This document shows, in pieces, positions 11,757 through 15,185 of a stretch of DNA of 33,607 nt. The position numbers and the translations under genes were made by a program. The notes under the pieces were generated by a model that saw only the letters and a program-made list of their open reading frames with translations, had not been told where the DNA came from and did no database searches. The DNA comes from an uncultured Eubacteriales bacterium (GTDB lineage Bacteria > Bacillota > Sulfobacillia > Fermentithermobacillales > Fermentithermobacillaceae), in assembly GCA_964646835.1 (NCBI GenBank), contig CAZYFG010000001.1, positions 1-33,607 on the forward strand, written 5' to 3'. Position 1 is the first letter of the stretch; each line of letters starts with the position of its first letter.

Positions 11757-12818
11757 ATGGACGTGAACAGCTTTTCCGCAATGCGCATTTCTCTGGCGTC
11801 ACCTGAGAAAGTACGTGAGTGGTCCCGGGGCGAGGTAAAAAAGCCCGAGACCCTGAACTACAGGACTCTGAAGCCCGAGCGCGATGGGCTCTTCTGCGAG
11901 AGGATCTTTGGGCCCACCAAGGACTGGGAGTGCTACTGCGGCAAGTACAAGAGGATACGCTACCGGGGCGTCGTCTGCGACAAGTGCGGCGTGGAAGTCA
12001 CGCGGGCCCTTGTAAGGCGCGAGCGCATGGGGCATATCGAGCTCGCCAGCCCGGTCTCTCACATCTGGTACTTCAAGGGCATCCCTTCGAGAATGGGTCT
12101 CCTTCTCGACATGTCGCCGAGGCTTCTGGAACGCATCCTTTACTTCGCGGCGTACATCGTGACCGACCCGGGAGACTGCGAGGGGCTTTCCTACAAGCAA
12201 GTCCTCACGGAAGCCGAATACCGCGAGGCAAGAGAGAAGTACGGTCAACGGTTCAGAGCCGGTATGGGAGCCGAGGCCGTGAAGCAGATCCTCATGGATA
12301 TCGACCTGGAGAAGATGGCCGAGGAACTCCGTGCCGAGGCCAAGAGCGCCAGCGGCCAGAGGAAGATCCGCGCCATCCGGCGGCTTGAGGTCGTGGAGGC
12401 GTTCCGCAAGTCGGGCAACAGGCCCGAGTGGATGATCCTCGATGTGATCCCCGTCATCCCGCCGGACCTCCGTCCCATGGTCCAGTTGGATGGGGGCAGG
12501 TTCGCCACGTCAGACCTTAACGACCTCTACAGGCGAGTGATCAACCGCAACAACCGCCTGAAGAGGCTGCTTGACCTGGGGGCTCCCGACATCATCGTGA
12601 GGAACGAGAAGCGCATGCTCCAGGAGGCCGTGGATGCCCTTATCGACAACGGGCGCCGCGGGCGTCCGGTCACGGGACCGGGCCAGAGGCCCCTCAAGTC
12701 GTTGTCGGATATGCTCAAAGGCAAGCAGGGCCGGTTCAGGCAGAATCTCCGTTGTCGGCCCCAGTCTCAAGTTCCATCAATGCGGTCTGCCCAAAGAAAT
12801 GGCTTTGGAGCTCTTTAA
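11757..12818 (+). CDS. rpoC: rpoC fragment 1 (N-terminal; zinc finger [20 protein letters not shown])
   Basis: Homology runs to ...[12 protein letters not shown] (12749). The following 22 codons ([13 protein letters not shown]...) are out of frame, up to TAA at 12816-12818. Confidence 0.8.
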
Positions 12819-14427
12819 ACCCTTCGTAATGAAGAAACTGGTGGAGAGCGGCGACGCCCACAACATCAAGAGCGCCAGGCGGCTGGTCGAAAGGGCAAGG
12901 CCCGAGGTCTGGGACGTCCTTGAGGAAGTCATCAAGGAGCACCTGGTCCTTCTGAACCGCGCTCCCACTCTTCACAGGTTGTCGATCCAGGCGTTTGAGC
13001 CCGTTCTGGTTGAGGGGCGCGCCATTCAGATTCACCCGTTGGTCTGCCCGCCCTACAACGCGGACTTCGACGGAGACCAGATGCCAGTGCACGTTCCTCT
13101 TTCTGCGGAAGCTCAGGCCGAGGCCAGAATCCTCATGGCATCGAACCGCAACCTCTTGCTGCCCAAAGACGGATCGCCTTCGGTTACGCCCCAGAAGGAC
13201 GTCGTGCTCGGTGTCTACTACCTGACACTGATCGACGAGGACGACCGCGAGACGAAGGACCTGAAGGCCTTCCACACTGAAGATGCGGCCATCCTTGCCT
13301 ATGACGTAGGCGCCATCAAGTTGCACGAGCGGATACTCGTGAGGCTCCAGACCGGCGAGAGGGTAGAGACGACTGTCGGGCGCTGCATCTTCAACCAGGT
13401 GTTGCCCGAGGGGCTCAGGTTCGTGAACTCGGTCGTGGACCGGAAGCCTTTGGGGAAGATCCTCCTCAAGTGCATCCGTCTCTACGGCATGGAGAAAGCA
13501 GCCAACATGCTGGACGGCATCAAGGATTTGGGGTTCAAGTACGCCACCCGTGCCGGGTCGACGATTGCCATTACCGATATTACCGTCCCGAAAGAGAAGC
13601 CCGAGATGCTCAAAGATGCAGAGGCCAGGGTGGCCGAGGTGGAGAGGCAGTATCAGATGGGCTTCCTTACCAAGGACGAACGCTACGACAAGATCATTTC
13701 CATCTGGCGTGATACCACCGACAGGGTCACCGAGGCGATGAGACAGGCATTCGACCCGCGCAACCCGGTGATCATGATGGTGAACTCGGGAGCCCGCGGC
13801 AACCCCCAGCAGATCTCCCAGTTGGGCGGCATGCGCGGTATCGTGGTCGACCCCTCAGGGCGAATGGTGGAGCAGCCCGTAAGGTCCAACTTCCGCGAAG
13901 GCCTGACGGTTCTCGAGTACTTCACGTCAACCCACGGACAGCGGAAAGGCCTTGTTGACACCGCCCTCCGCACTGCCGACTCAGGATACCTTACCAGGCG
14001 TCTCGTTGACGTTGCGCAAGACGTCATAGTAAGGGAAGAGGATTGTGGGACTGAGAGCGGCATCACCGTGAAGGAGATCAAGGTTGACGGAGAACTGGTA
14101 GAGAGCCTGTACGACCGCCTCCTTGGCAGGTTTGCGCTTAAGGATGTCCTCGACCCGAACACGGGCGAGGTGATCGTTGAAGCCAATCAGGAGATCGACG
14201 AAGACAGGGCAGAGAAGATCGTCGCCGCCGGCATCACGGAGGTGGCAGTGCGCTCTGTCCTGACTTGCGAGACCAGGCACGGAGTCTGCGTTAAGTGCTA
14301 CGGTCGCGACCGGTGGGTGCCGTTGCCGCGCAGTACATCGGCGAGCCGGGTACCCAGCTCACCCTCCGTACGTTCCACCTCGGAGGCATCGCCGGCGAAG
14401 ACATCACTCAGGGTCTCCCCAGGGTAG
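12634..14427 (+). CDS. rpoC: rpoC fragment 2 (catalytic core: NADFDGDQM, bridge helix [14 protein letters not shown])
   Basis: These are ORF-track coordinates. Real homology covers only 12751-14310 ([22 protein letters not shown] ... VCVKCYGRD), and both ORF ends are out-of-frame read-through. Confidence 0.8.
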
Positions 14428-15185
14428 AAGAGCTGTTTGAGGCAAGGAAGCCCAAAGGCCAGGCCGCGATCGCCGAGATAGCAGGTGTGGTCGAGATCGT
14501 CGAAGGCGACAGGAAGCGGGAGATCCGCATCACGTCAACTGAAGGCGACCAGACGGTCACGGTAGTGCCCTACGGGGCTCTAATCAAGGTGACCGACGGC
14601 CAGACCGTGGAGGCGGGCGATCCCCTCACGGAAGGGTCAATCAACCCCCACGACCTCCTGAGGGTCAAGGGAGTCACCGCCGTGCAGGACTATCTCGTGG
14701 CCGAAGTGCAGCGTGTCTATAGGCTCCAGGGTATCGATATTGCCGACAAGCACATCGAGGTCATCGTGAGGCAGATGATCCGGAAGATCAGGGTAGACGA
14801 GCCGGGCGACACCGATCTTCTGCCTGGCGGCGTCGTCAACGTCCACGAGTTCGCCGACGCCAACGCGCAGGTCTTTGAGACGGGCGGCGAACCCGCCATC
14901 GGAAAGCCCGTTATCCTTGGGATTACCAAGGCGTCTCTCGCCACCGAGTCGTTCCTCTCGGCCGCGTCTTTCCAGGAGACCACAAGGGTCCTCACGGAAG
15001 CGGCGGTCAAGGGAAGGGTAGACGACCTCCTGGGGCTCAAGGAGAACGTGATCATCGGAAAACTCATACCTGCAGGCACAGGTATGTCCAGGTACTCGCA
15101 TATCGACGTGAGGCGAGCTGCTCCTTCCGATGAGGTTGCCGCCGAGGACATCGCCGGAGCCGGAACTGAAGAAGATCATAGCTAA
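14295..15185 (+). CDS. rpoC: rpoC fragment 3 (trigger-loop helix to C-terminus)
   Basis: Homology begins at 14313: [25 protein letters not shown]...[19 protein letters not shown]...[14 protein letters not shown]...[11 protein letters not shown]. Confidence 0.8.

Follow-up and report, generated by a model that had tools for sequence, protein, structure and literature searches.

We analyzed a stretch of 33,607 nucleotides (nt) from contig CAZYFG010000001.1 (GCA_964646835.1) of an uncultured Eubacteriales bacterium of the family Fermentithermobacillaceae, hereafter called the window, in which the rpoC gene for the RNA polymerase subunit beta' is broken at two points. Directly 3' of an intact rpoB gene, rpoC is spread over three overlapping open reading frames (ORFs) on the plus strand, on which rpoB and all parts of rpoC described below also lie. 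ORF1 (11757–12818, 353 amino acids, aa) is read in frame 0, ORF2 (12634–14427, 597 aa) in frame +1, and ORF3 (14295–15185, 296 aa) again in frame 0. The ORF list bears out the coordinates and frames that the original prediction, made from the sequence alone, had given for this arrangement. The translated segments also agree with its statement that the NADFDGDQM motif and the bridge helix lie in the +1-shifted middle part.

The beta' homology itself runs collinearly through the three ORFs. The N-terminal segment (11757–12749, frame 0) encodes beta' residues 1–331, the middle segment (12751–14310, frame +1, 520 codons) reaches from VVGPSLKF to CYGRD and contains NADFDGDQM, the bridge helix and the second zinc site, while the C-terminal segment (14313–15185, frame 0 again) extends from the trigger loop to the stop. 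Pfam finds all five Rpb1-type domains in order across the three ORFs: Rpb1_1 covers residues 5–331 in ORF1, Rpb1_2 (profile positions 73–165 only), Rpb1_3, Rpb1_4 and the start of Rpb1_5 fall into ORF2, and the remainder of Rpb1_5 is assigned to ORF3. The zinc-binding cysteines, the bridge helix, the trigger loop and NADFDGDQM are all encoded in the translated segments. A single continuous ORF that includes the switch-2 and the pre-trigger-loop segments is not found in the window. Each ORF additionally carries sequence unrelated to beta'. ORF1 ends in an out-of-frame tail (12750–12818) of 22 junk codons followed by the stop TAA at 12816–12818. ORF2 starts at ATG 12634 with an out-of-frame leader of 39 codons (12634–12750) and closes with an out-of-frame tail (14311–14427) of 38 junk codons and a stop, and ORF3, with its listed start GTG at 14295, begins with 6 junk codons.

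At junction 1 (12747–12753) the beta' homology quits frame 0 after CTC at 12747–12749 (Leu331) and restarts in frame +1 with GTT (Val) at 12751. At junction 2 (14308–14315) it quits frame +1 after GAC at 14308–14310 (Asp864, at the end of CVKCYGRD) and restarts in frame 0 with GTG (Val) at 14313. For the sizing of both gaps on the DNA, nine closest-species contigs and several other species served as reference. Junction 1 lacks 38 nt, which encode the 13 residues LGKRVDYSGRSVI, and junction 2 lacks 34 nt, which encode the 12 residues that follow CYGRD and that read LASGGLVQVGES in the protein alignment with the closest relative. The original prediction had estimated about 38 and about 34 missing nt by alignment to a beta' consensus; alignment of the three fragments to the intact RpoC orthologues of relatives showed both values to be exact. 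It had also pointed out that the two losses sum to 72 nt, a multiple of three. The gap sizes behind this sum are right, but the sum carries little evidential weight, because two frameshifting gaps return to the original frame half the time and because frame 0 stops 22 codons past junction 1, so that nothing is read through.

The junction sequences are AATCTC/C/GTTGTC (junction 1) and CGCGAC/CG/GTGGGT (junction 2). Of the lost Ile codon ATC only the third base is left, namely the C at 12750, and the CG at 14311–14312 is what remains of a TCG or GCG codon. We checked for stripped runs of N and found no N anywhere in the window sequence. Microhomology amounts to only 1 nt at either junction. Near junction 1 there are a 9-nt direct repeat and a 9-nt inverted repeat of CGTTGTCGG, neither of which flanks the gap, and nothing like these repeats was seen at junction 2. 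A repeat-mediated deletion was rejected for these reasons. Two-step slippage at junction 2, with losses of 8 and 26 nt, is possible but unprovable.

For the comparison with other genomes, we joined the three in-frame parts to a rebuilt protein of 1141 aa, which was used as query and in the alignments. Its best matches are intact RpoC proteins of 1163–1170 aa with 88–92% identity from uncultured Bacillota of anaerobic digesters, and GenBank titles place these relatives in Candidatus Fermentithermobacillaceae. The closest intact orthologue has 1164 aa and is 92% identical on the protein level (P0001) and about 84% on the nucleotide level (locus L003). Every relative, including the nine closest-species contigs from several samples and other species of the family, possesses one continuous rpoC of 1161–1174 aa in the same operon, and no split rpoC was found among relatives at 72% to 92% identity. 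Sequences from the same species were also sought. Exact-protein look-ups with rpoC ORF1, with RpoB (two start codons) and with DapA gave no match. Peptide-guided scans of genome and metagenome contigs reached at best 91% and 89% and delivered no same-species sequence, and the complete ORF2, junk ends included, likewise gave no same-species fragment when searched as a protein. The DNA pattern of junction 1 had 0 matches in viral contigs. With no same-species match, there is no independent confirmation of the deletions and no intact allele was recovered.

Ungapped matches to beta' chains in the PDB allowed us to assign the lost residues. Those missing at junction 1 correspond to E. coli beta' 343–355, and those missing at junction 2 to E. 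coli beta' 903–914. The former are the C-terminal half of the switch-2 region, K345 included, and the latter connect the second zinc site (C895/C898) with the first trigger helix. In an alignment with 118 full-length homologues, 16 columns among the lost 13 and 12 residues are invariant or nearly so, and LGKRVDYSGRSVI shows no variation in these homologues. Neither LGKRVDYSGRSVI nor the 12 residues after CYGRD are encoded in any of the three frames. A beta' without these 25 residues, most of them invariant, should be dead. Because rpoC is essential and such a shortened beta' would be non-functional, the allele in the window could represent the consensus of growing cells only if a second functional copy is present.

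These losses bear directly on the idea that the cell assembles a functional beta' from three separately translated ORFs, or that recoding or an RNA-level process restores the full length. We give this idea next to no credence. The 25 residues would still be missing from all three pieces, both breaks fall within conserved segments and not into linkers, no relative is split, and the fragments would carry 22, 39 plus 38, and 6 junk residues, respectively. E. coli beta' is indeed known to tolerate splits at the chloroplast and archaeal sites, as Severinov et al. reportedly found in 1996. Ribosome binding motifs are also present, with AGGAGG 6 nt before the ATG of ORF2, a start signal of textbook type, and GGAG 9 nt before the GTG of ORF3. 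However, the start signal of ORF2 is not found in the closest relative, which has AGGAAG and no ATG at this place. The AGGAGG and ATG of the window (12622–12636) result from synonymous codon usage within the conserved QEAVDA stretch and look accidental. A designed restart signal for ORF2 was thus rejected, as the Shine–Dalgarno-like motif and the ATG are not conserved in the nearest relative.

Regarding recoding, the junctions contain no slippery site, homopolymer or apparent structure; the original prediction had likewise seen no recoding signals, and none exist at either junction. Frameshifting could in any case not supply the 72 missing nt, and we know of no insertional RNA editing in bacteria. 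Programmed recoding was consequently rejected: there is no slippery site, the coding sequence is absent, and the relatives are in frame.

Outside of the two gaps, the gene is well preserved. When each segment is read in its own beta' frame, the ratio of nonsynonymous to synonymous substitution rates (dN/dS) against L003 is 0.017 for the N-terminal, 0.045 for the middle and 0.066 for the C-terminal segment, and the rpoB control gives 0.035. In the middle segment the differences to L003 are distributed over the three codon positions as 43/15/197, so that third positions dominate. The low dN/dS in the respective frames means that, practically until today, the three pieces were evolving together as a single functional gene. 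Additionally, we defined 494 invariant or near-invariant columns in the alignment with the 118 full-length homologues. At these columns the window deviates only at the deleted positions and by one Ser-to-Tyr change in AAQ-S-IGEPGTQ (E. coli S922), which is encoded by TAC at 14334–14336, eight codons past junction 2; all relatives have TCC or TCA at this site. The same test scores zero for seven out of eight relatives at 83% identity or more. A decaying pseudogene was rejected on the basis of these values, which comprise dN/dS ratios of 0.017–0.066 and, besides the deletions, one private change at 494 columns.

The rebuilt protein contains only five private residues, two of which are located within eight codons after junction 2. 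One of these two is the Tyr described above; the other is encoded by GCC at 14319–14321 and changes Thr or Ile to Ala. The remaining three sit in variable regions. This clustering beside junction 2 fits a locally bad consensus.

Another observation concerns the core of rpoC (12751–14400). Relatives with at least 76% identity (P0001–P0032) share lineage-specific beta' substitutions at positions where distant Bacillota keep the canonical residues, for example in RLSIQAFEP (usually G) and with a trigger-loop Leu at the position of E. coli M932. The clade variants QMPVH and TFHLGG also occur in intact relatives. Because intact relatives carry them, these lineage substitutions are real traits and not errors.

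A real defective allele is a further candidate explanation, in which both deletions would be present in the DNA of the sample. An intact rpoC elsewhere, be it a second copy, other chromosome copies of a polyploid cell or the majority of the population, would provide the function. The deletions would be very recent, possibly the result of one complex error-prone repair event. We regard this explanation as unlikely. The sequence is unambiguous, without Ns, and the 1-nt microhomology together with the two point changes near junction 2 resembles scars of end-joining or error-prone repair. The otherwise pristine gene dictates that any real inactivation must be very recent. On the other hand, a lethal allele cannot be the consensus in growing cells, and the broken copy occupies the canonical rplKAJL–rpoBC–rpsLG–fusA–tuf operon. 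Neutral decay predicts scattered substitutions and small indels, not a lone second deletion of about 35 nt. Second rpoC copies are, to our knowledge, rare in bacteria, and the scans showed no second rpoC-like locus of the lineage, which is weak evidence since the genome itself lies outside the collections. That the deletions are real in living cells, either with a beta' in three separately translated fragments, devoid of half of switch 2 and of the hairpin that precedes the trigger loop, or with a freshly broken operon copy next to an unseen second functional rpoC, has in our estimation hardly any chance of being true.

We next turn to the surroundings of rpoC, where the sequence is of normal quality. 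The rpoB gene (7745–11737) is intact and full length, as the original prediction had claimed, with 1330 aa from ATG 7745 or 1333 aa from GTG 7736. Its product is 92% identical to the RpoB of L003 and shows one private change at columns that are invariant among the relatives. The operon order rplKAJL, asd, aspartokinase gene, dapA, rpoB, rpoC, antiporter gene, L7Ae gene, rpsL, rpsG, fusA and tuf matches that of the relatives. In the 13.4 kb aligned colinearly with L003, no large indel affects coding sequence apart from the two gaps in rpoC; the other indels are intergenic or small in-frame ones in the acidic tail of rpoB. In a leave-one-out comparison, the window has no more private changes than the relatives in rpoB, fusA, tuf, dapA and the genes for the aspartokinase and the antiporter. 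From nusG to adk, the S10 and spc ribosomal protein operons included, all plus-strand genes have normal length. Of the roughly 50 other genes that had been described as intact, this holds for the approximately 40 plus-strand ORFs that were checked. The defect is confined to the junction sites, and the odd bases gather beside junction 2.

A contig stitched from different sources could also break a gene at two conserved points. In such a chimera the middle 1.56 kb would stem from a co-occurring strain or species and would be joined at conserved sequence. To analyze this, we profiled the identity to 12 relative loci over 10 segments. L003 is the nearest locus for the N-terminal segment, for two of the three sub-windows of the middle segment and for the C-terminal segment; the differences are minor and do not jump where the junctions lie. 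Only the 520-nt sub-window 13271–13790 is slightly nearer to L012 and L095 than to L003. Synonymous divergence (dS) is similar across the segments. The unit of about 1.6 kb between the junctions does resemble stand-alone rpoC contigs of public assemblies, for example P0142 (1880 nt) and P0201 (1866 nt), which cover reference residues of about 238–871. Overall, we consider a chimeric origin very improbable. It would moreover be a sub-type of assembly error and not a separate biological claim.

In our judgment, two local assembly or consensus errors in a normal operon rpoC are the probable explanation, as far as the sequence allows such a verdict. We favor this artefact because the lost residues are invariant, the gene is undecayed, the anomalies are clustered, the rest of the window is clean, the relatives are intact, a broken rpoC is nothing rare in public metagenome assemblies and local errors are a documented problem of such assemblies. 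The original prediction had ranked an artefact before a real defective allele and before something genuinely unusual; selection, the near-invariant columns and the intact relatives lead us to the same order. The real gene would be the normal single-copy, operon-borne rpoC of a Candidatus Fermentithermobacillaceae-like Bacillota, with one ORF of about 1166 codons that includes LGKRVDYSGRSVI and a segment of the type L-A-x-G-x-L-V-x-V-G-E-S/A. Either the assembler itself, or scaffolding, gap closing or polishing, may have joined the flanks at two ultra-conserved stretches and thereby dropped 38 and 34 nt. A couple of miscalled bases would have been left beside the second join. Candidate steps are a skipped short graph node that is shared, a bad gap closure or join, or the removal of flagged spans. 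We infer that the gaps originated in silico or during library preparation and not in the cell.

Local assembly errors are documented in metagenome-assembled genomes (MAGs), for example 13 in one genome of 1.13 Mb (PMC7111523). Measured against this rate of about 13 per 1.13 Mb, two errors in one 3.4-kb gene are far denser. Several points weigh against an assembly error. Two independent errors in one such gene of a clean 33.6-kb window are unlikely, unless they have a shared cause that is linked to conservation. Deletions of 34–38 nt are also not typical for any single platform. Neither a long repeat nor microhomology, which is limited to 1 nt per junction, explains a shortcut in the assembly graph, and the window is without Ns. 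The identity to relatives is unchanged at the junctions, so that the contig is not obviously a three-source chimera. Finally, no second assembly of the species exists in the collections searched.

We also looked at rpoC in other public assemblies. Locus L170 (JGI 3300053716, Ga0534105_00499), a 248-kb contig of another Bacillota taxon, has an rpoC that is split into ORFs of 350 and 859 aa. At 4960–5019, a single G has dropped out of a G run in TCG-GGT-CGT, which belongs to the same switch-2 codons, and this splits the gene without the loss of any residue. The break has the appearance of a common homopolymer error of a long contig. As the ORF P0156 of L170 starts at VVGP, it was considered as a recurrence of the same deletion and rejected as a 1-nt frameshift. 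A second candidate for recurrence (P0146/L171) was rejected because the contig is riddled with frameshifts.

Partial RpoC ORFs are often cut off by the contig end within a conserved motif; in eight cases this happens at reference positions 866–874, which corresponds to junction 2. Altogether, the partial RpoC sequences (P0121–P0239) end at 866–874 (CYGRxLATG), 889–890 (AAQSIGEPG), 901–904 (MRTFHTGG) and 925–932. Contig-cut RpoC starts, that is, ORFs without an initial Met, are dense at reference positions 290–347. The list of partial RpoC sequences is skewed toward fragments that match the extent of the ORF2 query and is therefore weak evidence. The clustering of ends may reflect breaks of the assembly graph at conserved DNA. 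Judging by this list, which is subject to selection bias, public metagenome assemblies commonly contain an rpoC that is broken or truncated.

Several features of the neighborhood deserve mention. RpoB has a C-terminal extension of about 190 aa (about 11150–11737), which is strongly acidic with a basic patch at the end. Its length is kept in the closest relatives (1331 aa), with small in-frame indels between species. The operon is unusual throughout the family in that asd, the aspartokinase gene and dapA lie between rplL and rpoB (4357–7540), in the same order in L001–L009. Also with the same order in L001–L009, a gene for a NuoL/MrpA-like proton antiporter and a gene of the L7Ae family are located between rpoC and rpsL (15691–17881). 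The closest relatives have a gene with a metallo-beta-lactamase fold (219–246 aa) between rpoC and the antiporter gene, of which there is none at 15186–15690 in the window. These approximately 500 nt are non-coding and contain a 43-nt repeat present three times (15338–15502) and a 25-nt repeat present three times (15213–15288). A hairpin follows right behind the rpoC stop (15204–15238). Four tRNA genes are situated at 386–1018, upstream of the nusG/rplK region.

If the deletions were real, it would be remarkable that a cell can live with these invariant parts of switch 2 and of the pre-trigger-loop region removed, or that it has a second rpoC; the evidence, however, speaks for the opposite. 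As an artefact, the break in rpoC would be no feature of the organism, and its value would be limited to data quality. It would then flag that the contig, and probably its bin, carries local errors in a universal marker gene. The rpoC of this record is unsuited for phylogeny, for marker-based completeness estimates or as a protein reference before the reads have been checked. As a rule of thumb, a gene is likelier to be mis-assembled than dying when its dN/dS is very low, when its invariant sites are free of private changes and when gaps within invariant segments break the frame.

Genes for split beta' subunits are known from nature. Cyanobacterial and plastid rpoC1/rpoC2 and archaeal rpoA1/rpoA2 (A'/A'') share with the window the collinear beta' homology over multiple ORFs, and junction 2 lies roughly where the archaeal A'/A'' split falls, before the trigger loop. 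Natural beta' splits fall into variable linkers, retain every conserved residue, come with regular start and stop codons and are shared by whole phyla. In contrast, 25 conserved residues are lost in the window, the overlapping ORFs are out of frame with each other and have junk tails, and the relatives have a single ORF. A naturally split beta' was rejected, since both breaks are inside segments invariant in the 118 homologues and the split occurs in no relative.

Slippage and programmed frameshifting, as in the poly(A) tracts of endosymbionts, in prfB and in dnaX, likewise involve an essential gene that is out of frame in the DNA. These cases concern +/−1 nt at homopolymers or slippery sites and no coding sequence is lost, whereas the window loses 38 and 34 nt. 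The long-read indel in L170 has in common with the window the two overlapping ORFs at the same switch-2 codons, and differs from it by the loss of a single G compared to 38 nt. Short adaptive in-frame rpoC deletions are said to have been described by Conrad et al. in 2010 for laboratory-evolved E. coli. Those deletions are in frame, affect a tolerant region and leave a working enzyme, while the ones in the window are out of frame and hit the invariant core.

A parallel is provided by the local assembly errors in MAGs described by Chen, Anantharaman, Shaiber, Eren and Banfield (2020, Genome Res; PMC7111523), which likewise are short consensus stretches in otherwise good scaffolds where protein-coding genes are broken or altered. 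In uncurated MAGs such local errors can be detected only by absent read support (PMC7111523). The window corresponds to this picture with a clean contig, an essential gene that is broken at two points, and odd bases that are clustered.

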